This document shows, piece by piece, positions 3,551 to 61,269 of a stretch of DNA of 64,000 nucleotides. A model generated the notes under the pieces. That model saw only the letters and a program-made list of their open reading frames with translations, did no database searches and was not told the origin of the DNA. Every line of letters starts with the position of its first letter. Within the stretch, counting starts at the first letter, position 1. The translations under genes and the position numbers were made by a program. Origin of the DNA: an uncultured delta proteobacterium (GTDB lineage: Bacteria > Myxococcota > Myxococcia > Myxococcales > Anaeromyxobacteraceae); contig CAVWSG010000007.1 of the NCBI GenBank assembly GCA_963757745.1, forward strand, positions 490,932-554,931, in the 5' to 3' direction.

Positions 3551-3647
3551 GCGCGCTCCCCGTCCAGGAGGTGAATTTTCGGGGACCGGTATAACGCCGC
3601 CACCGGGCGGGAGGGAGCGAAAAGGAGGGCGCCGGGCTCGAGGGCCC

Positions 3648-4946: not shown

Positions 4947-4980
4947 GAAAAACATGGTTCTCCTCGTCCAGGCGGCACGG

Positions 4981-5956
<976 letters not shown>

Positions 5957-5963
5957 CGCCGGC

Positions 5964-24400: not shown

Positions 24401-25936
24401 GCTGGCGCTTCTTCACCCGAGGTGGACGAGGCGCTCACCGGGGAGGTGCTCTCGGACGGCTGGCTCCGCACCGGCGACCTGGGGCGGCTCGACGCGGCCG
24501 GGCGGCTCGTCCTGTGCGGCCGCAAGAAGGACCTCATCCTCTCCGCCGACGGACACAACGTCTACCCCGACGACGTGGAGGAGCTGTACCGCTCCGAGGA
24601 TCTCCTGAAGGAGCTCTCGGTGGTGGGCCTCCGCGAGGGCGGTCCCGGGGCGGGTGGCGAGGAGGCGGGCCTGCACGAGCGCGTGGCCATGCTGGCGGTG
24701 CCCGCCTGCCGGGGAAGGGAGCGCGCCGCGGTGCACCAGCTCATCGAGGCACACGTGAGGGAGGTCTCGGCGCGCCTGCCCTTCCACCAGCGGGTGAAGG
24801 TGTGGCACCTCACCGAGGTGGAGCTGCCCCGCACCGCCACGCGCAAGGTGAAGCGCGACTTCGTGGCCACCGAGCTGGCGCGCCTGGAAGCGCTGGCCCG
24901 GCGGCCGGAGCGACCCGAGGGCGCTCGCCCCGCGGGCGGCGACGCCTGGCTCCTCGACCTGGTGGCGGAGGTCTCCCGGCGCGCCCGCGATTCGGTCCGC
25001 CTCTCCTCGAAGCTCGGAGGCGACCTCGGCTTCGACTCGCTCATGCTCACCGAGCTCGCCGCCGCGCTGGAGCAGGCCGGGGCACCCGCGACCGTCACCG
25101 AGCACCTCCAGTCGTACGACACGGTGGCGGATCTCTCGCGGGCGGTGAGCGCCTCGATGCCCCAGGTGGCGGCCCGCCACGCGGTGCAGGTCACGGACCC
25201 CGCCTCGACCGGCGGCGCCGCCCGCGCTGGCGAGGAGCGGGCCGGAGAGCTCTTGGTCCCCGAGCCGGTCGCTGCGCTCGGGCGCCGGCTCCTGGGCCTG
25301 GGCCAGCGCATCCTCTACCGCGACGTCTACGCCACCACCGTGCGAGGCAAGGGATTCATCCCGCACGACCGCAACTTCCTGGTGGTGGCGAACCACCAGA
25401 GTCACCTCGACATGGGCCTGGTGAAGGTGGCGCTGGAGGAGGAGGGCTCGAAGCTGGTGGCGCTCGCCGCGGCCGACTACTTCTTCGACACGCCGCTCAA
25501 GCGCGCCTACTTCGAGAACTTCACCAACCTCATTCCCATGGATCGGGCGGGCTCGGTGCGCCGCAGCCTGCGCGCCGCCGTCGCCGCGCTCCGGCAGGGG
25601 CAGCACCTCCTCATCTTCCCCGAGGGCACCCGCTCGCGGGGCGTGGAGATGGCCTCCTTCAAGCCCACCGCCGGCTACCTCGCCCTGCACTGCGGGGTGG
25701 ACACCCTGCCCGTCTTCCTCCGCGGCACGCACGAGGCGCTCCCGGCCGAGTCGCTCCTGCCGCGCTCGGCCAAGCTGGAGGTGATCATCGGGAGGCCCAT
25801 CTCGGTCTCGGAGCTGCGCCGGCAGACGGCGGAGCTTCCCAGGGGCGAGGCGCACAAGGAGGCGACCCGCATCATGGAGGCCGCCGTGCGCGCCCTGGGC
25901 GGTCCGGCCGGCGGCACGGCCGGAGGACTCCCGTGA
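21433..25936 (+). CDS. Multidomain lipid enzyme, ElbD-like (about 1500 aa), one frame interruption near 21833-21841. Domains in order: fatty acyl-CoA reductase (NAD-binding), AMP-dependent acyl ligase, acyl carrier protein, lysophospholipid (AGPAT) acyltransferase
   Basis: FAR: [19 protein letters not shown]...VNCAGLVDF...[13 protein letters not shown]-binding: [21 protein letters not shown]...[30 protein letters not shown]-binding: [22 protein letters not shown]: [13 protein letters not shown]...[11 protein letters not shown]. Confidence 0.85.
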
Positions 25937-26979: not shown

Positions 26980-28266
26980 CTACGACAGGAACGCGGCGTC
27001 GATCTCGGCCACCTGCGCGGCGTCGATGGGGACGAGCTTCCCCAGAGCGCGGGAGGCGAGGAGCGCCTTGGCGCTGTACTCGGCCACCTCCAGGCGGTCG
27101 AAAGCGTTGAGGAGCGAGCTGCCGGTGACGATGACGCAGTCGTTCTCCACCAGCGCGAGCGGCCGCTCCGCGGTGAAGGCGGCGGCGGTGCCCTGCGGAT
27201 CCATGAAGGTGCAGCCGAAGGGCAGCTTCTCCACCTTCCGCAGCAGGATGTAGCTCTCGGGGATGGTGCGCGAGTCGAACGCCTCGCCGGTCACCGCGAA
27301 GGCCATGATGGCGGGCGGGTGGGCCACGATCACCGAGCGGACGTGCGGGTGGCGCGCGTAGATGGCCTCGTGCAGCACCACGGAGCGGCTCGGGAGCTTC
27401 CCCGCCTCGTGCGCGCCGCCCTCCACCCGGACGAGATCCTTCTCGGCGAGATAGCGGCGGTCGAAGCCGTAGGGCGTGATGATGAAGCCGCCTTCGGGGA
27501 GGCGCTGCGAGAAGGTGCCCTGGGTGCTGGTGAAGAGGAGCTGGTCGCAGGCGCGGCGGACGAGCTGGCACAGCTCGCGCCTGAGCGACCGCTCCTCGCT
27601 CGAGGCCGGGCGCGGCGGGAGCTCCGGCATCTGGACGTGCTGCTTGTGGCGTGAGAGGGCAATCTGCTCCTCGGAGAGGCCGCGCGGGGCGCCGATGCGC
27701 ACCGCCCCGAGCTCCAGCCGGGCGCAGAAGTCGAGCGTCTCGAAGGCCATGAAGGCGCGGAAGAGGTCCTCGCCGCCCACCACCGCCCCGTGGTTCTCGA
27801 GCAGCACCGAGTCGCACCCCCGGGCGAAGACGGCGGCGATCTTGGCGCCCAGGTCGGCGCTGCCGGGGAGGCCATAGGGCGCGAGCCCCACCTCGCCGCA
27901 GACGATGCGGGCGTTGGGGACGAGCGAGGTGTCGGGGAGCCGCCGGACGATGCTGAAGGCCACCAGCGCCGGCGGGTGAGCGTGGACGATGGCGCGGAGC
28001 TCGGGCCGGGCGGCGTAGATCTGCTGGTGAAAGGGCAGCTCCACCGACGGCTTGTGGATGCCCTCCACCGCGCCCCCCGGCCGCACCCGCATGACGTCAC
28101 GGGGGGTGAGCGAGCCCTTGTCGACGCCGCCGGGCGTGATCCACAGGTCGCCGTTCTCCTCCAGGATGGAGAGGTTCCCGCCCGAGGTGGTGGTCATGCC
28201 ATAGGCGTAGATGCGCTCCATGATCATGACGAGCTGCTCGGCGGGGTGCAGAAGGTCGAAATCCAT
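26980..28266 (-). CDS. Tandem (duplicated) class II aldolase/adducin-domain protein
   Basis: Two consecutive class II aldolase domains, each with the HxHxxH metal-ligand pattern (AIVHAHPPALVAF and SVIVAHPPAIMAF); no N-terminal extension. Confidence 0.8.
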   Translation of the reverse strand: MDFDLLHPAEQLVMIMERIYAYGMTTTSGGNLSILEENGDLWITPGGVDKGSLTPRDVMRVRPGGAVEGIHKPSVELPFHQQIYAARPELRAIVHAHPPALVAFSIVRRLPDTSLVPNARIVCGEVGLAPYGLPGSADLGAKIAAVFARGCDSVLLENHGAVVGGEDLFRAFMAFETLDFCARLELGAVRIGAPRGLSEEQIALSRHKQHVQMPELPPRPASSEERSLRRELCQLVRRACDQLLFTSTQGTFSQRLPEGGFIITPYGFDRRYLAEKDLVRVEGGAHEAGKLPSRSVVLHEAIYARHPHVRSVIVAHPPAIMAFAVTGEAFDSRTIPESYILLRKVEKLPFGCTFMDPQGTAAAFTAERPLALVENDCVIVTGSSLLNAFDRLEVAEYSAKALLASRALGKLVPIDAAQVAEIDAAFLS

Positions 28267-28320
28267 GGGCGCGGATCTAGGATCTCGCCTTCGCGGCCGC
28301 CCGCACTTCGAGAAGGCGGG

Positions 28321-29442
28321 CTACTTCCCCAGCGCGCGCACCAGCTCGTCGGTGACCCGCCGCACCAGCTCCTCCGCCTCGGGGTCGCGCCCGTCGGAGA
28401 CGCGCCCGGCGGCCACCGTGACGCCCGGCCGCCAGGAGAGGTTGTCGCAGAGCTCGCACTCCTTCAGCCCTTGCCGCGGGTCGGGGATCCCCAGGCCCTG
28501 CTTGATCTTGAGGAGATCCTGCACCTGCTTCGGCGCGATGAAGTTCGGCTCCTTGCCGAGCTGCGCGGTGACGAGCACCGTGCGGCAGTAAGCCTCCACG
28601 ATCTCCATCTTGAAGTAGGCGTCCTCCACGCCGAAGCCCCAGGCCACCACGCCGTGGTTCGCCATCAGGATGGTGTTGTGGCAGTCGGCGAGCTTCGCCA
28701 CCTCGTCGCCCATGCCCTGGGTGCCGGGCGTGAGGTAGGGCGCGATGGGCACCACCCCGCACATGACCTCCATCTCCGGGATCATGCAGGAGGGTGGCTG
28801 CACCCCCGAGACGGCGAAGCCGGTGGCGTGGGGGGGGTGGGCGTGCACGCAGGCCTTGGCCCTGGGCTGCGCCTTGTAGATGGCGAGGTGCATGAGCAGC
28901 TCGCTGGTGCGCCGCCTTCCGGGCGTCTTCTGCACGCCTTCCAGGTCCACCAGGCAGAGGTCCTCGGGCTTCATGAAGCCCTTCGAGACCAGTGTGGGGC
29001 TGCACAGCACGAGATCCTCGGCCACCCGGATGGAGATGTTGCCGCCGTTGCCGTCGACGTAGGCGCGCTGCCAGAGGCGCCGTCCGATGTCGCAGATCTC
29101 CAGCTTGTGCGCCTCGATGGCCGGCGAGCGGAAGAAGCGCTCGATCTCGCTGGGCGCCACCCTGGGGAGGGCGGGCGTGGCCGCGCTCGCAGGGGCGGCG
29201 GGCGCAGCGGAGGCCGCGGGCTTCTCGTAGGCCCCCCCGGCCGCCGGAGCGCCCACGCCGTTCGCCCTGGCTGCGGGAGCCGCGTGCGAGGGCGACAGGA
29301 CCATGGCCGCCCCGTTGCCGCGATCGCGCAGGAGGTCGCGCGCCGAGGGGGTGATGAGCGCGTCGGCGGGGATGGACTGGGCCAGGTCGGCCCCCTTGCG
29401 CAGCAGCTCTTCGACGTCGCGGGCGGAGATGACTCGTCTCAT
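28321..29442 (-). CDS. Class II aldolase (fuculose/rhamnulose-1-phosphate aldolase family) with an N-terminal ~110-aa extension that includes a candidate BMC encapsulation helix
   Basis: MRRVISARDVEELLRKGADLAQSIPADALITPSARDLLRDRG, then an Ala/Pro-rich linker, then an aldolase core (CVHAHPPHATGFAV, GVVPIAPY). Its ATG overlaps the BMC-P stop (ATGA). Confidence 0.8.
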   Translation of the reverse strand: MRRVISARDVEELLRKGADLAQSIPADALITPSARDLLRDRGNGAAMVLSPSHAAPAARANGVGAPAAGGAYEKPAASAAPAAPASAATPALPRVAPSEIERFFRSPAIEAHKLEICDIGRRLWQRAYVDGNGGNISIRVAEDLVLCSPTLVSKGFMKPEDLCLVDLEGVQKTPGRRRTSELLMHLAIYKAQPRAKACVHAHPPHATGFAVSGVQPPSCMIPEMEVMCGVVPIAPYLTPGTQGMGDEVAKLADCHNTILMANHGVVAWGFGVEDAYFKMEIVEAYCRTVLVTAQLGKEPNFIAPKQVQDLLKIKQGLGIPDPRQGLKECELCDNLSWRPGVTVAAGRVSDGRDPEAEELVRRVTDELVRALGK

Positions 29443-29738
29443 GATTTGGGCCTGTAGGTGACGTCGTCGACGATGGCCACGTCGATGGCGTCGATGGGGG
29501 TTTTCTGCGGGAAAGGCTGGGCCGCCTCGCGGCCCTCCACGAAGCCGATGGTGTCGCCCACGCCCGCGCCGAGGTCGTCGTAGACCACCAGCGAGGGCTC
29601 GCGGGAGAGGGGGGGCGGCTCCGCCCCCTGCTGCATGTGCTCGCGGTCGAATGGGCACACGAGGAAGAATCGGCCGCCGGTGAGGGCGGGCGAGGAGACG
29701 CTCAGGGTCACCCTCCCGACCACCTGCCCGAGCCTCAC
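29439..29738 (-). CDS. BMC vertex protein (BMC-P, EutN/CcmL/PduN family), copy 3
   Basis: (V)RLGQVVGRVTLSVSSPALTGGRFFLVCP...VVYDDLGAGVGDTIGFVEG...PIDAIDVAIVDDV; the GTG start overlaps the upstream BMC-P stop. Confidence 0.8.
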   Translation of the reverse strand: MRLGQVVGRVTLSVSSPALTGGRFFLVCPFDREHMQQGAEPPPLSREPSLVVYDDLGAGVGDTIGFVEGREAAQPFPQKTPIDAIDVAIVDDVTYRPKS

Positions 29739-30001
29739 GGGAGGCCTCGCTCGGGCTCGTCGACCACGCCCACGATCATGAGCCTCACCGGGCTCTTCGG
29801 GTCCTTCACCACCAGGCGCGCCCCGAGTCCGTCGGTGGAGACGATGACGCGGGAGTGCATCCCGGCGCCGTGGGGATCGATGGCCACCACCGCCGGTCCG
29901 TTGGGCGTGCCCTCGCCGTCGATGGGCTGGCAGAGGAGGAGCTTCCACCCGTCGAAGCTGGGGTGCTTGCGGGTGGCCACCACCTGGCCCTCGACGCGCA
30001 T
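29735..30001 (-). CDS. BMC vertex protein (BMC-P), copy 2
   Basis: MRVEGQVVATRKHPSFDGWKLLLCQPIDGEG...AVVAIDPHGAGMHSRVIVSTDG...VRLMIVGVVDE. It forms the C-terminal end of a long spurious ORF in the track. Confidence 0.8.
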   Translation of the reverse strand: MRVEGQVVATRKHPSFDGWKLLLCQPIDGEGTPNGPAVVAIDPHGAGMHSRVIVSTDGLGARLVVKDPKSPVRLMIVGVVDEPERGLP

Positions 30002-30012
30002 GAGCTGCACGG

Positions 30013-31518
30013 TCAGTAGATCCGAAGGTTCTCGGACATCACGCATCGACGGATGCGGGTGAAGGTGGCCGGGTTGGTGATGCCCTCCCCGGTGGGCGTG
30101 GCGATGGTGTAGGAGAGGTACCCCTCCCCACCCATGCCGAGGCCGGCCACCGACGGTCCGTTCTTCACGAAGAGCGTGGTGTCGAGCGCCCGCGCCATGG
30201 CGGTCATGCGGCTCACGTCGTGCGAGTGGATGATGGCGGTGTGGCGGAAGCCGTGCTCGGCGCGGAGCGAGCAGGCGATGCCCTCCTCCACCGACTTCAC
30301 CCGCACCACCGGGAGCACCGGCATCATCTGCTCCTCCATCACCCACAGGTCGTCGGCCGCCGTCTCGGCGAAGAGCACCTGCGTGTCGGCCGGCACCTGC
30401 GCGCCCGCCTCGCGGGCGAGGACGGTGGCGTCGCGGCCCACCAGGTCGCGGTTCACGCTGGCGTGGGAGCAGCCCGCCCCCTGCCCCTGCGGGAAGACGA
30501 AGGCGGAGCGGCTGAGCCGCTCGAGCTGCGAGGTGCCGAGTCGGAAGCCGCGCGCCCGCTCCATGGCCGCCATGAAGCGGTCGAACACCGGGGCGAGGAC
30601 GAAGATCTCCTTCTCGCCGATGCAGAGCAGGTTGTTGTCGAAGGCGGCGCCCTGCACGATCTTGCGGGCCGCCGCCTCGAGGTCGACGGTCTCGTCGACC
30701 AGCACCGGCGGGTTGCCTGGTCCGCCGCAGATGGCCCGCTTCGAGGACTGCATGGCCGCCTTCACCACGCCGGGGCCGCCGGTGATGCAGAGGAGCTTCA
30801 CGTGCTCGTTGGCGGTGAGCTCGGCAAAGCCCTCCAGGGTGGGCGCCTCGATGCAGCAGATGAGGTTCTCGATCCCCAGCTCGTGATGGATGGCCTCGTT
30901 GAAGGCGCGCACGGCCACGCTGGCGCAGCGCGCGGCGCCGGGGTGCGGGTTGAAGACGATGCCGTTCCCGCCCGCCACCATGCTCACCACGTTGCCGGCC
31001 AGCGTGGGGATGGAGTGGGTGGAGGGGGTGACCGCGCCGATGACGCCGAAGGGCGTGTGCTCCTCGAGGGTGATGCCGCCGTCGCCGGAGAGGCCGGTCG
31101 GGTGGAGGAACTCGACCCCGGGGACGTTCCGGACCACCTGCAGCTTCTCGATCTTGTGGTCGAGGCGGCCGATCTTCGTCTCCTCGAGCTCGAGGCGCCC
31201 CCACTCGGCGGCGTTGTCGTAGGTGATCTTCTTGACCAGCTCGATCACCCGCTGCCGGCCGGCGACGCCCTTCTCCCGGAGCTGCCGGAAGGCGGCGTCG
31301 GCCGCCTCGCACGCCTCGTCGACGTCGCCGAAGACGCCGTAGTGGCGCCCGCCGCTCGCCTTGGCGCACGTCCCGGCGTGCGAGCAGGTCCCGCTCGCCG
31401 CCGGCTGGGTTGGTGCCGGGGCGCGCGCGACGCCGTTCTGGCCCGCGCCGCGCCCGAGCTGACCCAGGATCTCCTGGACGATGTCTCGGACCAGGGTTTC
31501 GTCGATGGCTGTTCTCAC
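30013..31518 (-). CDS. CoA-acylating aldehyde dehydrogenase (PduP/EutE-like) with an N-terminal encapsulation peptide
   Basis: (V)RTAIDETLVRDIVQEILGQLG amphipathic helix plus linker, then an ALDH core (VIGAVTPSTHSIPTL ... ICGGPGNPPVLVDE ... catalytic Cys in CIGEKEIFV). GAGGAG lies 5 nt before the GTG. Confidence 0.9.
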   Translation of the reverse strand: MRTAIDETLVRDIVQEILGQLGRGAGQNGVARAPAPTQPAASGTCSHAGTCAKASGGRHYGVFGDVDEACEAADAAFRQLREKGVAGRQRVIELVKKITYDNAAEWGRLELEETKIGRLDHKIEKLQVVRNVPGVEFLHPTGLSGDGGITLEEHTPFGVIGAVTPSTHSIPTLAGNVVSMVAGGNGIVFNPHPGAARCASVAVRAFNEAIHHELGIENLICCIEAPTLEGFAELTANEHVKLLCITGGPGVVKAAMQSSKRAICGGPGNPPVLVDETVDLEAAARKIVQGAAFDNNLLCIGEKEIFVLAPVFDRFMAAMERARGFRLGTSQLERLSRSAFVFPQGQGAGCSHASVNRDLVGRDATVLAREAGAQVPADTQVLFAETAADDLWVMEEQMMPVLPVVRVKSVEEGIACSLRAEHGFRHTAIIHSHDVSRMTAMARALDTTLFVKNGPSVAGLGMGGEGYLSYTIATPTGEGITNPATFTRIRRCVMSENLRIY

Positions 31519-31832
31519 GGTGCTCCTCGTGCGGAGTAGATGATCTTTCCGAGCACGTCGACCTCGTCGACGATGCCGATGATGACGGCGTCGACCGGGG
31601 CGCGGTCGAAGCCCGGCGCCAGGCGAGCCGAGCTCCCCTGGCAGAACAGCACCAGCTCACCCTCGCCGGCGCCCACGCTGTCGACCGCCACCACGGTGTT
31701 GGTCCCTGGGCGGAAGCGCGAAGGGTCGACGTCGTCGACGAGCTGCGGCCGCAGGAGCAGCAGCTTGCGGCCCGACATGGCGGGGTCTTTCTTGGTCGCC
31801 ACCACCGACCCCAAGACGCGCGCCAGGAACAT
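31515..31832 (-). CDS. BMC vertex protein (BMC-P), copy 1
   Basis: MFLARVLGSVVATKKDPAMSGRKLLLLRP...VVAVDSVGAGEGELVLFCQGSSAR...AVIIGIVDEV. Confidence 0.85.
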   Translation of the reverse strand: MFLARVLGSVVATKKDPAMSGRKLLLLRPQLVDDVDPSRFRPGTNTVVAVDSVGAGEGELVLFCQGSSARLAPGFDRAPVDAVIIGIVDEVDVLGKIIYSARGAP

Positions 31833-31837
31833 GGGGG

Positions 31838-32164
31838 CTACTTTCCCTTCGGCGAGGGGGCAGCGGGCGTCTCGGGCGGCGTGGCCGACCTGGGCAGCAC
31901 CTGGCCCACGTCGTCGTGCGGGCGGGCAATGACGTGCACCGAGGCCACCTTGCCGCCCACCGCGCGCGCCGCCGCGGCGCCGGCATCGGTGGCGGCCTTC
32001 ACCGCGGCCACGTCGCCCACCACCACCGCGGTCACGAGGCCGCTGCCCACGTGCATCATCGGACCGGCGAGCTGCACGTTGGCCGCCTTCAGCATGGCGT
32101 CCGTGCCCTCCACCAGGGCCACCAGGCCCACCGTCTCCAGCATCCCGATCGCTTGAATCGCCAT
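31838..32164 (-). CDS. BMC hexamer shell protein (BMC-H, PduA/EutM-like)
   Basis: [34 protein letters not shown]...[23 protein letters not shown]...SVHVIARPH. Confidence 0.9.
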
Positions 32165-32212
32165 GTGTTCTCCCAGGGTGAAAGCTTCACGCCGTCGAAA
32201 GAGTTCCGTCCT

Positions 32213-33409
32213 TCACGCGCCCCGCGGCCGCGCCGCGAGAAGGCGCGCCACCTCGCGCGCCACCACCAGCTCCTCGTTGGCCGGGATGACGAGCACCCGC
32301 GCCCGCGCCCCGGCGGCGGTGAGCTCCGCCTCCGCCCCGCGGGTCGCCGCGTTGGACGCCGGGTCGAGCGCGAGCCCCAGCCCTTCCAGGCCGGCGCACA
32401 CCCCCGCCCGCACCGAGGCCGAGTTCTCGCCGATGCCCCCGGTGAAGACGAGGGCGTCGATCCCGCCGAGCTCGAGGAGGAAGGCCCCGGCCCACCGGCG
32501 CGCCTCGTGGACGAGCACGTCGAGCGCGAGCCTCGCCGGTGCCTCTCCGCGGAGGGCGGCCTCCTCCAGATCGCGCACGTCGTTCAGCCCGCCCGAGAGA
32601 CCCTTCAGGCCCCCCTCGCGCGAGAGCGCCCGCTCCGCCTCGTCGAGCGAGAGCCCGAGGGTGCGCATGACGTAGGGCAGCGCCATCGGGTCGAGGTCGC
32701 CCACCCGGTCGTTCTGCGGCAGGCCCGACTGCGGGCTCATGCCCATGCTGGAGCCGATGGCCACGCCATCGCGCATCCCGGTGACCGAGGAGGAGCCGCC
32801 GAGGTGGCAGGAAACGACCCGCAGCGGCGGACCCGCGACGGGACTCCGGCCCCCATCCACGTAGAGCCTCCTCGCCCGCTCGGCCACGTCGGGCCGGCCG
32901 AGGAGCTCGGCCGCCCGCTCGGCCACGAACTTGTGGCTCGCGCCGTGGAAGCCCCAGCGCCGGACGCCGGCCTCTCGCCAGCGCTCCGGCACCGCGTAGC
33001 GCGTGGCCGCCTCCGGCACCCACTGGTAGAAGGCGGTCTCGAAGAGCGCCACCATGGGCGTGCCGGGAAGAGCACGGCCGAAGGCGCGGATGCCGCGGAC
33101 GTAGGTCGGGTTGTGGACGGGCGCGATGCCGGCGTAGGCCTCCATCGCCGCGAGCACCGGCTCGTCGGCCAGCACGCAGCCCGAGATCCCCTTCGCCAGC
33201 ACGGCCTTGAAGCCCACCGCGGAGAGCTCGGAGAGGTCGCGCAGCGCCCCCTTCTCCCGCAGCGCCGCCAGGCACGCCTCGATCGCCTCGCCGTGGTCGG
33301 CGAGCCGCTCGAAGCCGCCCTTGGCGAGCACCCGCTCCTCGCCGTCGCCGAGCTCGAAGAGCCGGTACTTGAGCGAGGTGGAGCCGAGGTTGGCGACCAG
33401 GATCTTCAC
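32213..33409 (-). CDS. ackA: Acetate/propionate-family kinase
   Basis: MKILVANLGSTSLKYRLFEL ... VVSCHLGGSSSVTGMRDG ... LVFTGGIGENSASVR. Confidence 0.9.
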   Translation of the reverse strand: MKILVANLGSTSLKYRLFELGDGEERVLAKGGFERLADHGEAIEACLAALREKGALRDLSELSAVGFKAVLAKGISGCVLADEPVLAAMEAYAGIAPVHNPTYVRGIRAFGRALPGTPMVALFETAFYQWVPEAATRYAVPERWREAGVRRWGFHGASHKFVAERAAELLGRPDVAERARRLYVDGGRSPVAGPPLRVVSCHLGGSSSVTGMRDGVAIGSSMGMSPQSGLPQNDRVGDLDPMALPYVMRTLGLSLDEAERALSREGGLKGLSGGLNDVRDLEEAALRGEAPARLALDVLVHEARRWAGAFLLELGGIDALVFTGGIGENSASVRAGVCAGLEGLGLALDPASNAATRGAEAELTAAGARARVLVIPANEELVVAREVARLLAARPRGA

Positions 33410-33432
33410 GGTTGGGTGATCTCCCCGCGCGC

Positions 33433-33711
33433 TCAGGCCAGCCAGCGCCCGAGCCCGGACAGGTCCTCGTGCGGGCGTGGGATCACGTGCACGCTGACCA
33501 CCTCGCCGATGCTGGCGCCGGCGGCCGCGCCGGCGTCGGTGGCGGCCTTCACCGCGGCCACGTCGCCGCGGAAGAAGGCGGTGACGAGGCCGCTGCCGAT
33601 CTTCTCCCAGCCCACCAGGGTCACGTTGGCCGCCTTGAGGGCGGCGTCGGAGGCCTCGAGCAGCGCGCAGAGGCCCTTCGTCTCGATCATCCCGACCGCT
33701 TGCTGTGCCAT
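33433..33711 (-). CDS. BMC hexamer shell protein (BMC-H)
   Basis: [34 protein letters not shown]...[23 protein letters not shown]. Confidence 0.9.
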
Positions 33712-33728
33712 TGTCGTCTATTCTCCGG

Positions 33729-33998
33729 CTACTTGAGGAAGGCGGCGAGGAGCTCGTTGTGAGGGCGGGCGATGACGTGGGAACTGACGAGCTCCCCCAC
33801 CCGCTCGGCCGCGCGGGCGCCGGCGTCGACCGACGCCTTGACGCTGCCCACGTCGCCCTTCACGAGGACGGTGATGAACCCGCCGCCGATGGGGACGGTG
33901 CGCACCATGGCCACGTTGGCCGCCTTGAGCATCGCGTCACTCGCCTCGACGCTGCCCACGAAACCCTTCGTCTCGATCATCCCGAGCGCTTCGTTCAT
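33729..33998 (-). CDS. BMC hexamer shell protein (BMC-H)
   Basis: [33 protein letters not shown]...GGGFITVLVKGDVGSVKASVDAG; GGAG RBS before the ATG at 33998. Confidence 0.85.
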   Translation of the reverse strand: MNEALGMIETKGFVGSVEASDAMLKAANVAMVRTVPIGGGFITVLVKGDVGSVKASVDAGARAAERVGELVSSHVIARPHNELLAAFLK

Positions 33999-34039
33999 CT
34001 CCACTCTCCTCACTGGTTTGTCGTTCGGACCCGGGCTCT

Positions 34040-34711
34040 TCAGCGGAACAGCTCGCACGGCGTTCCCGGCACGAGGTTGCATGCGTTGGCCTCGTCGGTG
34101 TCGATGTGCACCTCCAGCTCGAAGCTGGGGTTCACCCGCACCAGCACCTTCTCCAGCACCGTGGGGCAGTCGCCCCCCACCCGCAGCTTGAGATTCCCGC
34201 CCTCGGCGACCCCGTAGAACGCGGCGTCGGCCGGGCTCATGTGGGCGTGGCGCAGGGCGCGGATGAGCCCCTGCTCCATCCTGAAGTAGCCCCTCGGGCC
34301 CATGAGCATGCACCCCGGCGTGCCGGCGATGTCGCTGGAGAGGCGCACCGGCAGCTCGAAGCCGAGCGCGATGCCGTCGGTGAAGGCCAGCTCGACCTGG
34401 TTGTAGTCGCGGCAGGGGCCGAGGATGCGCAGGCCGGAGATGATGCGGCTCCGGGGCCCGATGAGCGTCACCGTCTCCTCGGCGGCGAAGTGGCCGGACT
34501 GGGCCAGCGGCTTGGCCGGGGCGAGCTCGCGGCCGGGGCCGAAGAGCGCCTCCACCGCCTCGCGCGTGAGGTGGCAGTGGCGCGCGCTCACGTTCACCCG
34601 AAGCGGATTGGGGGCCGCGGCCAGGACGTGGGGTGCCTCGCGCCCCAGCCGGCCGTACACCGCCTGGCGAACCAGGGCCTCGATGGCGCTGCGCGAAGGG
34701 TGAAGGTCCAT
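34040..34711 (-). CDS. PduL-type phosphotransacylase with an N-terminal encapsulation-peptide-like helix
   Basis: MDLHPSRSAIEALVRQAVYGRLG, then a duplicated PduL fold (RHCHLTREAVEALFG ... GPRGYFRME). Confidence 0.85.
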   Translation of the reverse strand: MDLHPSRSAIEALVRQAVYGRLGREAPHVLAAAPNPLRVNVSARHCHLTREAVEALFGPGRELAPAKPLAQSGHFAAEETVTLIGPRSRIISGLRILGPCRDYNQVELAFTDGIALGFELPVRLSSDIAGTPGCMLMGPRGYFRMEQGLIRALRHAHMSPADAAFYGVAEGGNLKLRVGGDCPTVLEKVLVRVNPSFELEVHIDTDEANACNLVPGTPCELFR

Positions 34712-34713
34712 CG

Positions 34714-35268
34714 TCAGACGAGCTCCCTGTAGACGTCGGGGTGCGGTCTCGGGATCACCACGGCGGAGACGAGGACGCCCGCCGCGGACACCACCTGCCG
34801 GCCGGCGGCCATGGAGGCCTGCACCGCGCCCACGTCGCCCACCATGGTGACGAAGGCCTTGCCGCCGAGCGCCATCGCCACCCGCAGCTCGATGAGCTTC
34901 ACGTCGGCCGCCTTGGCGGCTGCATCGGCGCCCTCGATGAGGGCCGCCACGTTGAACGACTCGAGGACGCCGAGCGCCCCGTTGGCTGCGGGCGGCGCGG
35001 CGGTGCGGCCCAGCGCGGCGAAGACGTCGGGGTGGAGGTTGGGAATGACGAGCTGCTGGATGAGGGTGCCGTTGGCCGACTCGGCGGCTGCCTCTACCGC
35101 CGCCTCGACCGCGGCCATCTCGCCGCCGACGAGGACGATGTACTTGCCCGAGCAGATGCTGCGCGAGAGGAGGAGCTCGACGTTGCCCGCCTTCAGCATG
35201 GTGTCGGCGGTGAGAAAGCCGCTCGCCACGCTGGTGAGCTCGACGAGGCCGATGGAGCGCTGTTTCAT
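34714..35268 (-). CDS. Tandem-domain BMC shell protein (BMC-T, PduT-like)
   Basis: Two BMC domains in 184 aa: MKQRSIGLVELTSVASGFLTADTMLKAGNVELL...ICSGKYIVLVGG / ...ALGVLESFNVAALIEGADAAAKAADVKLIEL. Its ATG overlaps the upstream stop (ATGA). Confidence 0.85.
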   Translation of the reverse strand: MKQRSIGLVELTSVASGFLTADTMLKAGNVELLLSRSICSGKYIVLVGGEMAAVEAAVEAAAESANGTLIQQLVIPNLHPDVFAALGRTAAPPAANGALGVLESFNVAALIEGADAAAKAADVKLIELRVAMALGGKAFVTMVGDVGAVQASMAAGRQVVSAAGVLVSAVVIPRPHPDVYRELV

Positions 35269-36602
35269 GGAGTCCTCGCCAGGGTGACCGCGGCGGCGTC
35301 GACCGCGCCGACGGTCGCGTCGAAGGGCGCGTGAACGATGGCGCCGAGCGCCCCCTGCGGAAGCTCGCCGAGAGGCTGCCCCCGGCGAACGCGATCGCCC
35401 GGCTTCACCAGGGGCTTGTTGGGCGCGCCAGCCCCCTGCTTGAGCGGCACCACGGCGCGGGCCGGGCTCAGCGAGACCTCGGAGAGCGGCGCCGGATGGG
35501 CGTACTGCTCGATGCGGAGCTTCTTCATGAGGCCGTTGATCGGCACCCGGCGGTCTCTGTGGAACGGGTGCGGCTTCTGGCTCTCCTTCTTCGGGAAGGG
35601 GAGCTTGGGGCCGGCCTTCCGGAGCTCGGCCTTGGAGTCGTCGCACGCCTCCTTGGGATAGAGCTCCTCGGGACAGGCGAAGATGGTGCAGAGGCCGCAG
35701 GCGCAGCAGAGCGTGGCGAGCTCGTCGAAGTAGGAGGCGCCCCGGGCGGCGAGGCCCAGGGTGCGCATCACCTGGTGCGGCTCGACCGCGTAGCCGAGCA
35801 GGTAGCGCGGGCAGAGCTCGGTGCAGTAGCGGCACTGGTCGCAGGCCGACTTGCCGATCTGCCGCATCTCGGGGCCGGTCTTGAGCTTGCGCTGCACGGC
35901 GTGGTGCTGGCGCGAGAGGACGATCACCCCACCCAGGGTCTTCGTCACCGGCGTGTCGAGGTCGGCGGTGGTGCTCCCCATCATCATGCCGCCGAGGCAG
36001 AGCACCGGGTCCGGGACCTTCGCGCCGCCGGCCGCGGCGATCACCTCGCGGAGCGGCGTGCCGAGCGGCGCCCAGAGCGTGGTGGGCTCGCCCACCGCGC
36101 CGGCCACGGTGAGGAGCTTCCGCGTCACCGCCTCGCCGCGGGCGGCCGCGGTGACGTTGGCGAGCGTCTCCACGTTCGCCACCACCACGCCGACGTCGAG
36201 CGGGATCCCGGCGGGCGGGATGAGCCGCCCGGTCACCTCGTGGACGAGGTCGTATTCGTCGCCGGCCGGGTAGTAGTCGCCGAGGAGCTTCACCCGCACC
36301 GGGCTCTTGGCGCACGCCTCGCGGACGGCCTCCACCGCGTGGGCGTTCTTGGCCTTCACCGCGACGAAGCCATCCTTCGCGCCCACCGCCTCCATGGCGA
36401 GGCGGACGCCCTCCACCACCTCGGCGGCCTGGTGCTCCATGCAGGCGGCGTCCTTGTGCAGGAGCGGCTCGCACTCGGCGCCGTTGGCGATGACGGTGTC
36501 GGCCCGGCCGGCGAGCTTCACGTGGGTGGGGAACCCCCCACCGCCCGCGCCCACCACGCCGGCGAGCCGCACCTTCTCCATGAGATTGGCCGCGCCCTGC
36601 AT
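35265..36602 (-). CDS. RnfC/PduS-like Fe-S flavoprotein (NADH-binding, two 4Fe-4S motifs)
   Basis: GVVGAGGGGFPTHVKL ... CDQCRYCTELCP ... CCACGLCTIFACP. Confidence 0.85.
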   Translation of the reverse strand: MQGAANLMEKVRLAGVVGAGGGGFPTHVKLAGRADTVIANGAECEPLLHKDAACMEHQAAEVVEGVRLAMEAVGAKDGFVAVKAKNAHAVEAVREACAKSPVRVKLLGDYYPAGDEYDLVHEVTGRLIPPAGIPLDVGVVVANVETLANVTAAARGEAVTRKLLTVAGAVGEPTTLWAPLGTPLREVIAAAGGAKVPDPVLCLGGMMMGSTTADLDTPVTKTLGGVIVLSRQHHAVQRKLKTGPEMRQIGKSACDQCRYCTELCPRYLLGYAVEPHQVMRTLGLAARGASYFDELATLCCACGLCTIFACPEELYPKEACDDSKAELRKAGPKLPFPKKESQKPHPFHRDRRVPINGLMKKLRIEQYAHPAPLSEVSLSPARAVVPLKQGAGAPNKPLVKPGDRVRRGQPLGELPQGALGAIVHAPFDATVGAVDAAAVTLARTP

Positions 36603-36741
36603 CTTCCGTCAAGCTCCTCTAGGACCTTCGCCCCCGCGCGGCGATCGATGGCGCATGATGGGGCAAGCCCCCTCCGGGATCAAGGGGCCCGCCGCGACCA
36701 ATGTGCCTGGAATGGCTCACTATAACCTTTTAGCCGCACGG

Positions 36742-38017
36742 TCAGCGAAGTGGAGCGGCGCGCTGTTCGGCCACGGCCCGCTCGTGGGCGCGCACGCCCT
36801 CGAGCCAGCCCACGCCCACCGGCACGCCGCTCCGGGCGCAGTAGTGGTCCCACACCGCGGCCCAGGGAAGCGACTTCGCCTCCTCCAAGAGCGCCAGGCG
36901 CGCGGTGAGGTCGCCCTTCCGCTCGGCCTCGGCGAAGGTGGCCCCGGGCTCGAGCAGCGCGCGGAGGAGCGCGCGGCGCATGTTGCGGGTGCCGATGGCC
37001 CAGGCCGCCACGCGGTTGATGCTGGCGTCGAAGAAGTCGAGCCCGATGGACACGCGGTCGAGCACCTGGCCCCGCACCAGCTCGGTGGCGATGGCCTGCG
37101 TCTCGTCGTCGAGCAGCACCACGTGGTCGCTGTCCCAGCGCACCGGGCGGCTCACGTGGAGCAGGACCCGGTCGACGAAGCTCAAGATTGACGAGAGCTT
37201 GTCGGAGACCACCTCGGTGGGGTGGAAGTGGCCGGTGTCGAGGCAGAGCATCACCTTCCGGCTCACCGCGTACGCCAGGTAGAACTCGTTCGAGCCGGGC
37301 GTGTAGCTCTCGGCGCCGAGCCCGAAGAGCTTTCCCTCCACCGCGTCGCGGTGGTGCTCGGGCTCCATCGGCTCGGCGAGCGCCTCGTCGAGCGACTCGC
37401 GCAAGAGCCGCCGTGGACCCCAGCGGTCGTAGGGCACGTCCTTCGAGCCGTCGGGGATCCAGATGTCGAGGACGGCGGGCGTCCCCAGCTCGCGCCCGAA
37501 CGAGCCGGCGATCTCGCGGCAGCGCTTGGTGTGCCTCACCCAGAAGGCGCGCACGCCGGGGTCGGGGTTCGTGAGCGTGCCGCCTTCGGAGAGCGGGTGC
37601 GAGAAGTAGGTGGCGTTGAAGTCGAGGCCGATCCCGCGCGCCTTCGCCCAGTCGACCCAGCGGGCGAAGTGCTCGGGCAGGATCTCGTCGCGCGCCACCG
37701 CGCGCTCAGCCTCGAGATAGGTGGTGTGCAGGTTGAAGCGCTTCGGCCCAGGAATCTGGGCCATCGCCACCTCGGCGTCGGTCCGCAGCTCGTCGGCGGT
37801 GCGCGCGCGCCCCGGGTAGTTCCCGGTGGCGGCGATGCCCCCGGTGAGCTCCGCGCGGGGATCCTCGAACCCCCGGACGTCGTCCCCCTGCCAGCAGTGC
37901 AGGGAGATGGGGATTCTGGTCGAGCCGCGCGAGCGCCGCCTCCACGTCGACGCCGACCTCGCCGTAAGCCTCGCGCGCCAGTCCGTAGGCGCGCTCGATG
38001 CGCGACTCTCCGCTCAT
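36742..38017 (-). CDS. rhaA: L-rhamnose isomerase, one frame interruption at ~37915
   Basis: N-terminus [34 protein letters not shown] in one frame. The remainder [26 protein letters not shown]...[15 protein letters not shown]...[13 protein letters not shown]...[19 protein letters not shown]...YCARSG in another. Both are collinear with E. coli RhaA. Confidence 0.85.
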
Positions 38018-39489
38018 TGCCACTCCCTTCGGGTCTTTCGGAAGCCCTGGTAGCGCCGCCAGACCTCGTCCGGCACCGGCGACCTGGGCACGAAGTCGTC
38101 GGGCGCGAAGGAGCGGCGCACCGCCGCCCGCGCCTCGGCCAGCGAGCCGAAGGCCCCCAGCGCGCGGAGCTGCATGCAGGCGTTGCCGAGCGCCGAGGTC
38201 TCGGCCGGCCCGGCGCCCACCGGCAGCCCGCAGGCATCGGCGCAGAGCTGGTTGAGGAGCCGGTTCTGACTGCCGCCGCCCACGATGCGGACGTGGGTGA
38301 TCTTCTTCTGGCGCAGCGCCTCGATGTCGTCCCGCACGCGCCGGTAGGCGAGCGCCAGGCTCTCGAAGGCGCAGCGCGCCAGGCTGGCGGTGTCGGCGGG
38401 CTCGGGCTGGCCGGTCTCGGCGCAGAAGGAGCGGAAGGCGGCGCTCATCGACGGCGGGTCGTAGAAGCGCGGGTCCTCCACGTCGACCACCGAGCGCCAG
38501 GGCGCGGCTCCCTCGGCCGCCTCCACCAGCGCCGCGTGGCTGAGACCGGGCAGCTCGGCGCGCAAGCGCTGGGCGAGCCAGAGCCCGACCACGTTCTCCA
38601 GCACCCGGTAGCGCCGGTCGACCCCGCCCTCGTTGGTCACGTTGTGCTGGCGGGCGGCGTCGGTGGCGTAGGGGGTGAGGCTCTCGATGCCCACCAGGGA
38701 CCAGGTGCCCGAGCTGATGAACATCTCGTCGTCGCCGGCGAGCGGGATGGCCGCCACCGCCGAGGCGGTGTCGTGGGTGGCGGGCGCGATCACCTTCACC
38801 TTGCGAGCTGCTCCCGAGGGCGCGGCGAGCTCGCCGAGGAGCGTGCCCGGCGCCACCGGTTTCACGAAGAGCTCCCGGCGGACGCCGGCCGCGGCGAGCA
38901 CCTGCTCGTCCCACTCGTCGGCGGCGAGCGCGTAGACCTGGGTGGTGGTGGCGTTGGTGTACTCGTTCGCCTGGACGCCGCACAGCCGGTGGTGGAACCA
39001 GTCGGGCAGCATGAGGAAGCGGCGCGCTCGCTCGAGCCAGCCGGGCCGGTGGCGGGCGGTGGCGGCGAGCTGGTAGAGCGTGTTGAACACCTGGAACTGG
39101 ATGCCGGTGCGCCGGTAGATCTCCTCGGGCGGCATCCGCCCGTAGACGGCCGCCATCTCCGGCACGGTGCGTTCGTCGCGGTAGCAGACCGCCTGGCCCA
39201 CGCGCTCGCCTTCGCCGTCGACCAGGACGTAGTCCACACCCCAGGAGTCGACCCCCAAGCTGGCAAGCGGCGCCTCGCGATCGGCCGCGGCGAGGCCCTC
39301 CCGCACCTTGGCCTCGATGGCCTCGACGTCCCAGCACATCCAGCCGGAGTCGGGGTCCTTGAACTGCGGGGTGTCGAAGCGCACGCCCTCGCGCAGGGTG
39401 ATGCGATCGCCATCGTAGGAGGCGCCTGCCACCCGGCAGCTCGCAGCGCCGAGGTCGACCGCCGCACAGTGAATGGTTTCCATCGTCAT
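38014..39489 (-). CDS. rhaB: Rhamnulokinase (FGGY carbohydrate kinase)
   Basis: MTMETIHCAAVDLGAASCRV ... SLGVDSWGVDYVL ... FISSGTWSLVG ... VRIVGGGSQNRLLNQL; stop overlaps the rhaA ATG (ATGA). Confidence 0.85.
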   Translation of the reverse strand: MTMETIHCAAVDLGAASCRVAGASYDGDRITLREGVRFDTPQFKDPDSGWMCWDVEAIEAKVREGLAAADREAPLASLGVDSWGVDYVLVDGEGERVGQAVCYRDERTVPEMAAVYGRMPPEEIYRRTGIQFQVFNTLYQLAATARHRPGWLERARRFLMLPDWFHHRLCGVQANEYTNATTTQVYALAADEWDEQVLAAAGVRRELFVKPVAPGTLLGELAAPSGAARKVKVIAPATHDTASAVAAIPLAGDDEMFISSGTWSLVGIESLTPYATDAARQHNVTNEGGVDRRYRVLENVVGLWLAQRLRAELPGLSHAALVEAAEGAAPWRSVVDVEDPRFYDPPSMSAAFRSFCAETGQPEPADTASLARCAFESLALAYRRVRDDIEALRQKKITHVRIVGGGSQNRLLNQLCADACGLPVGAGPAETSALGNACMQLRALGAFGSLAEARAAVRRSFAPDDFVPRSPVPDEVWRRYQGFRKTRREWQ

Positions 39490-39669
39490 GACTCCGGAGG
39501 GTGAGAGGAGGTTGTCACGGGCGCTGCCGGGCTGCCTTGGGAACTCCGCCAATCTTCGCCCCGAGGCGCTCCGGAAATCGAAGGAAAAGCGCCGCCACGG
39601 AAGGGGTCTCGCCGCGCTGGAAAGGAGCGCGCTCCGGAGGTATCCTCGCTCTTTCCCGGCAGGTGCCCG
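39490..39669. promoter_or_regulatory. Divergent intergenic control region between the rhaB-BMC operon and the rhaS-like regulator
   Basis: 180-bp non-coding gap between two divergently oriented genes; it is expected to hold both promoters and AraC-type operator half-sites. No motif was confirmed. Confidence 0.4.
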
Positions 39670-40530
39670 ATGAAGCTACCGGCAGGTGAGTACTTCCTCA
39701 CGCCCACGCAGGCGGTGGCCGTCCAGCCGCGGGCGCCACAGGCGCGCTTCCCGCTCCACGACCACGAGTTCGACGAGCTGGTGATTGTCCGCTCCGGACA
39801 CGGCTGGCACGTGCTCGACGAGGAGCCCCGCCTCATCACCTGCGGCGAGGTGCTCTACATGCGCGCCGAGGACCGCCACGCCTTCGAGGAGGTGCACGAC
39901 CTCTATCTGACGAATGTGCTTTACCGCCCCACCGAGCGGCTCCTCAGGCCCGACCGCTTGCGGGCCTGCATGGACCCGGTGGACGGCACCTCGGGGGCGC
40001 GGCGCCACTGGCAGGTGTGCGAGGAGACCCTCGACCGGCTCACGCCGCTCCTTGGACGGCTGGCCAGCGAGGCCAGCCGCAACGACCCGCTCTCCGAGGT
40101 GATGGCCGAGAGCCTCTTCATGGAGGTGTGCGTCACCCTCGCCCGCGAGCGCTTCGCCCCCGACGGCGAGGGCGTGCCCTGCGACGCCCGGCTCACCCAC
40201 GTCCTCGCCTACCTGCGGGCCCACTGCACGGGCGAGGTGGACCTCGACGACGCGGCGCGCCGCTTCGGCTACTCGACGCGCAACTTCGCCCGGGTCTTTC
40301 GCGAGGCCACCGCCACCACCCCGCACAACTACCTGGTGCAGCTCCGCCTCGGCCACGCCATGCGCGCGCTCCGCACCACGGAGAAGAGCGTCACCGAGAT
40401 CGCCTTCGACTCCGGCTTCAACGACAGCTGCCACTTCTCCTCGTCCTTCAGCAAGATGACCGGCGTCTCACCGCGCGAGTACCGGCGGCGGGCGCGAGCT
40501 CCCGGCGCCACGGCCGCCGCGATGAGCTGA
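39670..40530 (+). CDS. rhaS: AraC-family transcriptional activator, RhaS/RhaR-like (cupin + HTH)
   Basis: Collinear with E. coli RhaS: PRAPQARFPLHDHEFDELVIVRSGHGWHV...LTNVLYRP...C-terminal HTH TEIAFDSGFNDSCHFSSSFSKMTGVSPREYR. Confidence 0.85.
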   Translation: MKLPAGEYFLTPTQAVAVQPRAPQARFPLHDHEFDELVIVRSGHGWHVLDEEPRLITCGEVLYMRAEDRHAFEEVHDLYLTNVLYRPTERLLRPDRLRACMDPVDGTSGARRHWQVCEETLDRLTPLLGRLASEASRNDPLSEVMAESLFMEVCVTLARERFAPDGEGVPCDARLTHVLAYLRAHCTGEVDLDDAARRFGYSTRNFARVFREATATTPHNYLVQLRLGHAMRALRTTEKSVTEIAFDSGFNDSCHFSSSFSKMTGVSPREYRRRARAPGATAAAMS

Positions 40531-40789: not shown

Positions 40790-40861
40790 AGGCACCGCCC
40801 GGATTCGAACCGGGGAATGAGGGTTTTGCAGACCCTTGCCTTACCACTTGGCGACGGTGCC
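40790..40861 (-). tRNA. tRNA-Cys (anticodon GCA)
   Basis: 72-nt cloverleaf folded by hand. Acceptor GGCACCG/CGGUGCC, 3-bp D stem with short loop, anticodon stem AGGGU/ACCCU with loop CUGCAAA, T arm CCCGG-UUCGAAU-CCGGG, discriminator U. No CCA is encoded. Confidence 0.8.
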
Positions 40862-52030: not shown

Positions 52031-52230
52031 GGCGGAGGTCCTTTTCGCGCGCTCGAGCCAGGCGCCGCGGCGTCCCGGAGCGGCGCACATCCCGCCTGGC
52101 CCGAAGGTTCACCTTCACCTCTAAAATGGAAGGCGCCCCGCGGCACGGGCGAAGTGCCCGCGCTATGCTGAAAGGCCGGGTCGGCTCCGCTCGGACCCAC
52201 CCCTCCACCCCCAAGGCGAAGAGGCTCTCC

Positions 52231-61041: not shown

Positions 61042-61269
61042 CACCGCCGCCTTGCGCCCCGGCGCGGCTCGCCGGCCCCGGGGGCCGATCACGGCGGATC
61101 CCCACGCGTCGGGATGGACCGCGCGCAGGCGGAAGTCGATGGTTCGCCACGGCTTGACAAATCGATTGTGAACGCTCACACTCCCCGCTTCACCTTTGAC
61201 CGAAAGTGGTGTTGCAGGGGCTCGCCCATACTGGCGCAGGTCGCACCGTCGTTCAAGGAGACTCCCACC

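Follow-up and report, generated by a model that had tools for sequence, protein, structure and literature searches.

The 64-kb window analysed here, which is the whole stretch of DNA examined from contig CAVWSG010000007.1 of an uncultured member of the Anaeromyxobacteraceae, carries a string of bacterial microcompartment (BMC) genes on the same strand as genes for L-rhamnose catabolism. We consider it likely that this locus is an operon for a lactaldehyde metabolosome of the type catalogued as PVM, that it forms one unit with rhaB and rhaA, and that it holds within it the electron-export module MNdh/BMC-T(SE). Its most likely function is the degradation of rhamnose, with a toxic aldehyde kept enclosed. 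Both the organelle type and the electron-export module have been described before; the bacterial group and the gene arrangement are new, the novel elements being the host phylum, a RhaS-like regulator in place of DeoR, an operonic fusion to rhaBA, and an electron module fixed in the main locus.

Because the window is ~72% G+C, real genes were picked among the open reading frames (ORFs) by third-position GC and then matched against Pfam. All 16 genes of the locus were confirmed in this way, 15 on the minus strand at 26980-39489 plus a divergent regulator, and every gene named in an earlier, sequence-only reading of this DNA passed its Pfam model in the order given there. The shell-protein check was likewise positive, with PF00936, PF03319, and PF06130 all matched at the locus. 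Pfam profiles were covered wholly or nearly so in the 14 operon genes besides rhaA, the AckA match starting only some 55 profile positions in, and these genes had host-like GC at third codon positions (0.87-0.97). Neighboring genes overlap by 4 nt at five junctions and the widest gap, between rhaA and the PduS gene, is 139 nt; from this packing, the 15-gene arrangement looks like a single operon. A scan of the locus for promoters and terminators gave nothing above shuffled expectation.

Ten consecutive minus-strand genes make up the core of the locus. In order of transcription, they encode the phosphotransacylase PduL (34040-34711; PF06130), two single-domain shell proteins, BMC-H 1 (33729-33998; PF00936, E = 6e-27) and BMC-H 2 (33433-33711; PF00936, 1.3e-28), an acetate/propionate-family kinase, AckA (32213-33409; PF00871, 1.2e-86), BMC-H 3, which has a Pro/Ala-rich C-terminal tail (31838-32164; PF00936, 1.8e-19), BMC-P 1 (31515-31832; PF03319, 1.9e-28), a CoA-acylating aldehyde dehydrogenase (AldDH) of the EutE/PduP type (30013-31518; PF00171), BMC-P 2 (29735-30001; PF03319, 1e-23), BMC-P 3 (29439-29738; PF03319, 6.7e-17), and the 373-residue class II aldolase that is the signature enzyme of PVM loci (28321-29442; PF00596, 3.1e-46).

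Relatives of this core were collected by AldDH similarity in a scan of one genome per species, which yielded at least 80 loci, and for synteny 81 loci were searched by tblastn with the window proteins; all figures that follow apply among the matches listed. First, the ten-gene order PduL-H-H-AckA-H-P-AldDH-P-P-aldolase was collinear and on one strand in about 70 PVM loci, and nearly every locus of sufficient length to cover all ten genes kept it, with protein identities of 55-88%. Second, individual components kept their places: PduL and AckA sat at the same positions in about 70 PVM loci, each protein of the BMC-P triplet and each of the three single-domain BMC-H proteins had a positional orthologue, and BMC-H 1 (64-83% identity), BMC-H 2 (57-92%), and BMC-H 3 were all syntenic. 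Third, the window AldDH was 62-67% identical to the closest Verrucomicrobial PVM enzymes, and apart from one identical copy its relatives were at most 72% identical, the named ones being mostly Verrucomicrobial "EutE" proteins. In a neighbor-joining tree, the window AldDH grouped with those of an Anaeromyxobacteraceae locus (L001) and a Polyangiaceae locus (L014), nested among Verrucomicrobial sequences; the tree had no bootstrap, and this placement is therefore suggestive only. Since some 70 Verrucomicrobial PVM loci share the ten-gene core in collinear order at such identities, we assign the locus to the PVM type. The likeness to a planctomycetal-style metabolosome that had been noted from the sequence thus extends gene for gene across the core.

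By the account that later papers give of Erbilgin et al. (2014), the PVM metabolosome of Planctopirus (Planctomyces) limnophila and Verrucomicrobia shares with our locus the content and order of these ten genes, an aldolase with the same terminal extensions, N-terminal extensions of AldDH and PduL at known encapsulation-peptide positions, and the same inferred lactaldehyde chemistry. The differences lie around the core. The 2021 BMC catalogue (Sutter et al., 2021), in which type PVM comprises 285 loci, confines it to Planctomycetes and Verrucomicrobia, whereas the window host belongs to the Anaeromyxobacteraceae. DeoR, the usual PVM regulator (present, for example, in the Verrucomicrobial loci L082 and L083), is not at the window locus, where a RhaS-like AraC-family protein stands instead. 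In addition, the window operon opens with rhaB and rhaA, PduS and BMC-T are co-directional within the main locus, an Ldh-family dehydrogenase is missing from the operon and its flanks, and an extra tandem aldolase gene follows the core.

Assignment to the host did not depend on metagenome binning, because an aspartase/fumarase gene ~15 kb away shares the contig with the locus; its product is 79-84% identical to proteins of Anaeromyxobacter and Anaeromyxobacteraceae, where all of its named top matches lie. The genome, which had been called Myxococcota-like, can thus be placed in the Anaeromyxobacteraceae. We found no literature linking PVM compartments to Myxococcota or Anaeromyxobacter. The design recurs in related contigs. 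A metagenome-assembled genome (MAG) contig of the Anaeromyxobacteraceae (L001) carries rhaB-rhaA-PduS-BMC-T-PduL-H-H-AckA-H-P-AldDH-P-P-aldolase, and in the Polyangiaceae contig (L014) PduS-BMC-T is co-directional with the core. Two further loci, L089 and L090, have AldDH enzymes 69% identical to that of the window; L089 (Logan DRR591297 contig, 1-6328) carries, all on one strand, rhaM, the four genes of a sugar ABC transporter, and PduS-BMC-T-core in that order, and L090, a shorter contig, spans PduS-BMC-T-core only. The genes fused to the compartment operon in L089 are rhamnose uptake genes, not rhaBA. Fusion to rhaBA had been singled out in the sequence-only reading as a feature of this locus, and in the window these genes do lie in one operon with the shell genes; the linkage is not unique, as some Verrucomicrobia also connect PVM genes to rhaA or rhaB, including Lacunisphaera (L046), which has PduS/T together with rhaB/rhaA, and several listed Opitutaceae loci with rhaA nearby.

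AldDH scored 589 bits against NCBIfam model NF011927 (cut-off 403), with Cys299 in an invariant NNLLCxGEK motif, and begins with a helix and linker of conserved consensus NExLIRDVVxEVLGRLG that is a putative encapsulation peptide. PduL scored 225 bits against NF011652 (cut-off 209), and its N-terminal extension of ~35 residues, ahead of an alignment to PDB 5cuo that starts at residue 34, is likewise a putative encapsulation peptide. AckA has no N-terminal extension and scored 281 bits against TIGR00016 (cut-off 293); this homologue is presumed to act as a lactyl-phosphate kinase. The aldolase shares three features with 67 listed PVM aldolases: an N-terminal domain of ~40 residues (residues 1-42, MKxVISxRDVEE..LTPSARDxLR), a Cys-containing LKECELCDNxEWRPGV motif at about residues 325-335, ahead of the C-terminal peptide, and that peptide itself, EAEELVRRVTDELVRAL, a putative encapsulation peptide that aligns with their amphipathic EAEALVxAITDQI tail. 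A linker and the catalytic domain follow the N-terminal domain and precede the Cys-containing motif. A Pfam search with the first 122 residues of the aldolase gave no family at E <= 1. Equivalents of FucA residues E73, H92, H94, and H155 are all present, as judged by alignment to a FucA reference sequence.

The PduS and BMC-T genes lie between rhaA and the core. The PduS homologue (metabolosome NADH dehydrogenase, MNdh; 35265-36602, minus strand) contains Complex1_51K, SLBB, Fer4_17, and RnfC_N domains, the four-domain MNdh architecture in Pfam terms. It has a site for FMN, motifs for two [4Fe-4S] clusters, and an RnfC_N barrel at its C terminus; its translation shows GAGGGGFP and CxxCxxCxxxCP motifs. 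It falls in the NCBIfam RnfC subfamily and is 57-67% identical to PduS proteins encoded next to other listed PVM loci. The PduS stop codon is overlapped by 4 nt by the next gene, which encodes a PduT-like tandem BMC trimer, BMC-T(SE), with two PF00936 domains (34714-35268, minus strand). The SICSGKYIV segment of this trimer aligns with PVCPGKYIV of PDB 3nwg and with PduT structures 3n79 and 3pac, matching the pore cysteine, and the pore motif ICSGK (residues 36-40) occurs in seven PVM-linked BMC-T proteins (window, L001, L008, L026, L046, L071, and L079); the corresponding motif in L014 is LCAGK. In the published MNdh/BMC-T(SE) system, which has biochemical support as a route of NAD+ regeneration from work on other homologues, NADH is oxidized inside the shell and electrons pass out through a pore Fe-S cluster (PNAS 2024, PMC11626177). 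The same study finds this system in 361 loci without an alcohol dehydrogenase and in 20 PVM genomes, in 18/20 of them in satellite loci, and reports that many BMC types carry both it and alcohol dehydrogenase systems. Our locus resembles the published system in having a four-domain PduS next to a single-layer tandem trimer with a pore cysteine, in the co-occurrence of AldDH, which shares the operon with the pair, and in the absence of an alcohol dehydrogenase or B12 enzyme at the locus. It differs in the pore sequence, and in that the pair is embedded in the main operon, whereas the reported PVM cases are mostly satellite.

Pfam searches of nearly every GC-filtered ORF in the window, a few of which gave no Pfam match, detected no B12-dependent diol dehydratase, glycyl-radical enzyme, or iron alcohol dehydrogenase, and the operon and its flanks hold no iron- or zinc-dependent alcohol dehydrogenase or Ldh-family gene. 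The reported absence of a B12 dehydratase and of a lactaldehyde/propanediol oxidoreductase from the window was thus borne out. The same reading had named the PduS-like flavoprotein as the sole redox candidate and left the NADH partner unclear; the flavoprotein is indeed implicated, and the open part is answered by the published MNdh/BMC-T(SE) system, in which PduS works with the neighboring BMC-T (PMC11626177). Recycling of NAD+ by the PduS/BMC-T pair is the most economical reading. An aldo-keto reductase gene in the window (52126-53163) was considered as a lactaldehyde reductase and rejected; its product is 37% identical to one encoded beside a tandem aldolase gene in L084.

The rhamnose genes head the operon. 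rhaB (38014-39489, minus strand; FGGY_N/C) encodes a probable rhamnulokinase, and its TGA stop is overlapped by the rhaA ATG at 38017 (ATGA). rhaA (36742-38017, minus strand; PF06134, 6.8e-181) encodes L-rhamnose isomerase, which passed the cut-offs of both NF002203 (628 versus 572 bits) and TIGR01748 (613 versus 585 bits) with the first 35 codons left out. An AraC-family gene (39670-40530, plus strand; AraC_binding and HTH_18) is divergent from rhaB across a 180-bp intergenic region. Its earlier annotation as a RhaS/RhaR-like activator stands, with RhaS as the best full-length match, though below the curated cut-off. The window shares with rhaBAD-rhaSR of E. coli the families of RhaB and RhaA and an AraC activator, RhaS/RhaR-like, that is divergent from rhaB; by contrast, it has one regulator gene, no RhaT, and no RhaD-type aldolase (56-64 bits against the rhamnulose-1-phosphate aldolase model NF002963, cut-off 170), and the aldolase step and everything downstream of it would have moved into a protein organelle.

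These features suggest the following scheme. L-rhamnose would act through the RhaS-like activator to turn on the operon, and cytosolic RhaA and RhaB would yield L-rhamnulose-1-phosphate. The PVM aldolase, presumably targeted to the lumen by its C-terminal peptide, would cleave it to dihydroxyacetone phosphate and L-lactaldehyde. Encapsulated AldDH would then convert lactaldehyde to lactyl-CoA with production of NADH, PduL would regenerate CoA and release lactyl-phosphate, and the acetate-kinase homologue would form lactate and ATP. NAD+ would be regenerated within the shell: PduS/MNdh would move two electrons from NADH to FMN and two Fe-S clusters, from which they would reach the pore Fe-S cluster of the PduT-like trimer and a presumed acceptor outside the shell, and lactaldehyde would not need to be diverted to 1,2-propanediol. 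The route from lactaldehyde through lactyl-CoA and lactyl-phosphate to lactate, as predicted from the sequence, equals the published PVM scheme (PMC8857213, PMC4784909). PVM compartments serve both fucose and rhamnose (PMC4207490), and BMCs have been observed in Limisphaera growing on rhamnose (PMC13608581).

Several observations weigh against this scheme or parts of it. The rhaA frame is broken after codon 35 by one extra A at 37914/37915. RhaB falls short of the rhamnulokinase model TIGR02627 (519.3 bits, cut-off 527.95), its next-best family being fuculokinase at 144 bits, and the regulator scores 224 bits against RhaS model PRK13503 (cut-off 288) and, as its second match, 192 bits against RhaR (cut-off 363), in both cases over its full length. 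Neither aldolase of the operon reaches an NCBIfam equivalog cut-off, so that fuculose-1-phosphate is a candidate substrate as well as rhamnulose-1-phosphate, and no rhamnose transporter or mutarotase gene adjoins the locus. The BMC-T pore reads CSGK, and the published motif is CP(G/S)K; this departure is common to the seven PVM-linked copies listed above. The search for an alcohol dehydrogenase covered the 64-kb window, and such a gene may lie elsewhere in the genome. Finally, a published proposal holds that Tyr or Phe at the position of rPduL Gln77 occurs in most pvm loci and marks lactyl-CoA use, and the equivalent residue 74 of the window PduL is His. This position is Gln in 58/64 listed PVM loci and Tyr in only one; the proposed signature therefore does not define the type in this sample, and we rejected it as a marker of lactyl-CoA use, as the window protein lacks it and so do most of the PVM loci sampled.

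The alternative that survives best concerns the fate of NADH. In it, the organelle is the same and NAD+ is regenerated mainly by a lactaldehyde reductase, FucO-like or of another kind, whose gene lies in another part of the genome; as in the classical metabolosome scheme, half of the lactaldehyde becomes 1,2-propanediol, and PduS/PduT is an accessory used only under some redox conditions. About 72/81 listed PVM loci have no PduS/T within 10 kb and must still recycle NAD+, a published Verrucomicrobial pathway scheme includes 1,2-propanediol (PMC8857213), and the satellite position of most PVM-associated MNdh genes and the coexistence of both systems in many BMC types (PMC11626177) fit the same picture, as does the limited span of our stretch, 64 kb of a contig of at least 598 kb. 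In contrast, no candidate alcohol dehydrogenase gene lies in the operon or its flanks, and in the Myxococcota sublineage PduS/T has a fixed place within the main operon, where stop and start codons overlap, which suggests obligatory co-expression. We judge recycling mainly by a reductase encoded elsewhere to be unlikely, though serious enough to keep in mind.

A bolder version of our preferred reading, with MNdh/BMC-T(SE) as the recycler, makes that module the sole one, so that the Myxococcota sublineage would run the PVM organelle as a fully oxidative, respiration-coupled rhamnose module. We find this quite possible, while leaning slightly against it. Anaeromyxobacter species are versatile respirers. 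If the proposal were true, every lactaldehyde would be converted to lactate with substrate-level ATP and none would be lost as 1,2-propanediol, electrons would run through the shell to the respiratory chain of the host, and the shell would be an obligatory electron conduit in nature.

A second alternative is that the compartment serves 6-deoxyhexoses or other sugar phosphates in general, with a main substrate other than rhamnose (for example, L-fucose), rhaBA being mere neighbors that share the regulator. This idea draws on the documented handling of fucose as well as rhamnose by PVM compartments (PMC4207490), on the promiscuity of class II aldolases together with the sub-equivalog scores of both window enzymes, and on the finding that most listed PVM loci have no rhaA or rhaB nearby and a DeoR regulator; moreover, a member of the tandem aldolase family is encoded, in one genome, next to genes for fucose isomerase, a kinase, and FucU. 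It has to be set against the overlap of the rhaB stop with the rhaA start, the 139-nt same-strand spacing of rhaA and PduS, and three independent related contigs that place rhaBA, or rhaM and an ABC transporter, directly upstream of PduS. The regulator also matches RhaS/RhaR best, and no fucI or fucK gene was found within the window. A main substrate other than rhamnose is, on this balance, improbable.

We also weighed whether the locus belongs to catalogue type MIC4 rather than PVM. MIC4 (15 loci) combines AldDH, PduL, class II aldolase, acetate kinase, PduS/PduT, and a BMC-P triplet and is spread over diverse phyla (PMC8217296 Supplementary Data 2); the type's AldDH is described as closest to those of MUF2/MUF3, and its shell proteins belong to the H_camo, H_fuchsia, and green/grey/orange BMC-P clades (Sutter et al., 2021). 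By description, this enzyme and shell inventory agrees with our locus in every item, acetate kinase and a PduS paired with a Cys-pore BMC-T among them (PMC8217296). However, the great majority of the 80 nearest listed AldDH loci are PVM loci of Verrucomicrobia that have the identical core order, none of those listed comes from a MIC4 phylum bar two MAGs labeled Acidobacteria, and the window aldolase bears the PVM-specific N- and C-terminal features, which makes a MIC4 assignment very unlikely. The GRM5 or 'fucosome' loci of Clostridium phytofermentans and the PVM-like loci of Firmicutes are also L-fucose/L-rhamnose compartments in which a homologous class II aldolase makes lactaldehyde. There, lactaldehyde is turned into 1,2-propanediol and then into propionaldehyde by a glycyl-radical dehydratase, an enzyme with no counterpart in the window, whereas the sequestered aldehyde in the window system would be lactaldehyde itself.

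If the break in rhaA were real, the isomerase step would be lost. The window reads CTCGACCAGAATCCCC where rhaA of L001, which is intact and encodes 422 residues, reads CTCGACGAGATCCCC. Other conserved genes of the window are also broken, and for this reason an indel in the assembly, and not a pseudogene, is the probable explanation of the rhaA break. In the gene for phosphoenolpyruvate carboxylase (PEPC; 48887-51590, minus strand), profile positions 1-200 fall in 50961-51590 and positions 262-919 in 48887-50782, in different frames, with a frame switch near 50.9 kb and no stop codon. Counting rhaA and PEPC, the rate is about one frame break per 10 kb. Although the extra base does interrupt rhaA and the next in-frame start would remove the conserved HCWQGDD region, a decaying locus, in which rhamnose entry has been lost and the BMC genes are a relic of horizontal transfer, is highly unlikely in view of the near-complete Pfam coverage of the 14 other operon genes, their host-like third-position GC, the frame-broken housekeeping genes in the same window, a break rate that points to assembly indel errors, and the fact that all frame switches inside the BMC core coincide with stop codons.

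Stop-less frame switches were also seen near 5395 and 6745 in genes for 2-oxoacid dehydrogenase E1 alpha/beta (4981-7316, minus strand) and near 21256 and 21766 (plus strand), upstream of a large multidomain gene.

PVM metabolosomes have been regarded as typical of those Planctomycetes and Verrucomicrobia that live on polysaccharides rich in fucose and rhamnose. Finding the same organelle in the Anaeromyxobacteraceae, on contig-level evidence, widens the range of soil and sediment bacteria expected to process 6-deoxyhexoses in a compartment that holds lactaldehyde. In addition, the locus offers a natural test case for MNdh/BMC-T(SE), with the module in the operon, no alcohol dehydrogenase, and a presumed inducer (rhamnose) and products (lactate versus 1,2-propanediol) that are easily measured. 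With rhaBA and a RhaS-like activator fused to its shell genes, it amounts to a compact microcompartment cassette, inducible by sugar, that may be of interest for engineering.

As to how the organelle reached this group, we infer that a Verrucomicrobia-like donor passed it on long ago and that local re-wiring came afterwards, a history that would fit the nested AldDH. A recent insertion has no support, because no att-like repeats were found and locus GC is as in the flanks, which the locus also matches in codon bias. We considered a genomic island at a tRNA-Cys (GCA) gene (40790-40861, minus strand) that lies 260 bp past the regulator with its 3' end toward the locus and was the sole match in an Rfam scan of the whole window. 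No att-like direct repeats or integrase were found at the tRNA gene, the repeat search returning only repeats between BMC paralogues, and the island was rejected. About 1.5 kb of poorly coding sequence lies beyond the tRNA gene (about 40.9-42.4 kb). Among the relatives, four loci (L018, L026, L061, and L030) come from MAGs labeled Bifidobacteriaceae, Pseudomonadales, Dongiaceae, or Haliangiales, and their AldDH enzymes group with Verrucomicrobial ones; these odd labels may be binning errors or further transfers.

The last gene of the operon (26980-28266, minus strand) encodes a tandem class II aldolase-family protein of 428 residues with two PF00596 domains. Its position at the end of the string had been called correctly; its inclusion among the microcompartment genes was not upheld, as it belongs to a separate, widespread family and is not a conserved microcompartment gene. 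No separate tandem-aldolase-like gene was detected at the other 80 listed PVM loci, no encapsulation peptide was recognized in the protein, and by these sequence criteria it is a neighbor of the PVM core and not a member. In domain 1, the Glu and all three His residues of the catalytic site are retained, and domain 2 has S/V/H/D at the E73/H92/H94/H155 positions, a pattern of intact domain 1 and degenerate domain 2 that holds in all 120 family members examined, the window protein included; domain 2 is predicted to be catalytically dead. The family is near-fixed at 428 residues, with 65-73% identity across Anaeromyxobacteraceae and Clostridia, and has members in other groups as well. In the L001 genome, its gene is on another contig beside a RhaS-like ABC transporter, and elsewhere it accompanies PFK/FBA, sugar transporters, fucose genes, and AP_endonuc_2 isomerase-like genes. 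We found no solved structure that spans both domains, and the family, although very conserved, is apparently uncharacterized. A 428-residue protein encoded after the aldolase in the Verrucomicrobial locus L082 was checked and is not homologous to it.

Two further gene groups of the window deserve mention. A sugar ABC transporter (Peripla_BP_4 binding protein and BPD_transp_2 permease) lies at 60289-63460 on the plus strand, at a distance of ~20 kb; its binding protein gives a weak match to the rhamnose RhaS model (112 bits, cut-off 342), and the ORF carries an N-terminal extension of ~300 residues, possibly a further artefact of frame. The other, at 21857-25936 (plus strand), is convergent with the operon's end and encodes a 1359-residue protein with NAD_binding_4 reductase, AMP-binding, PP-binding, and acyltransferase domains, which we take to resemble the myxobacterial ether-lipid synthase ElbD.

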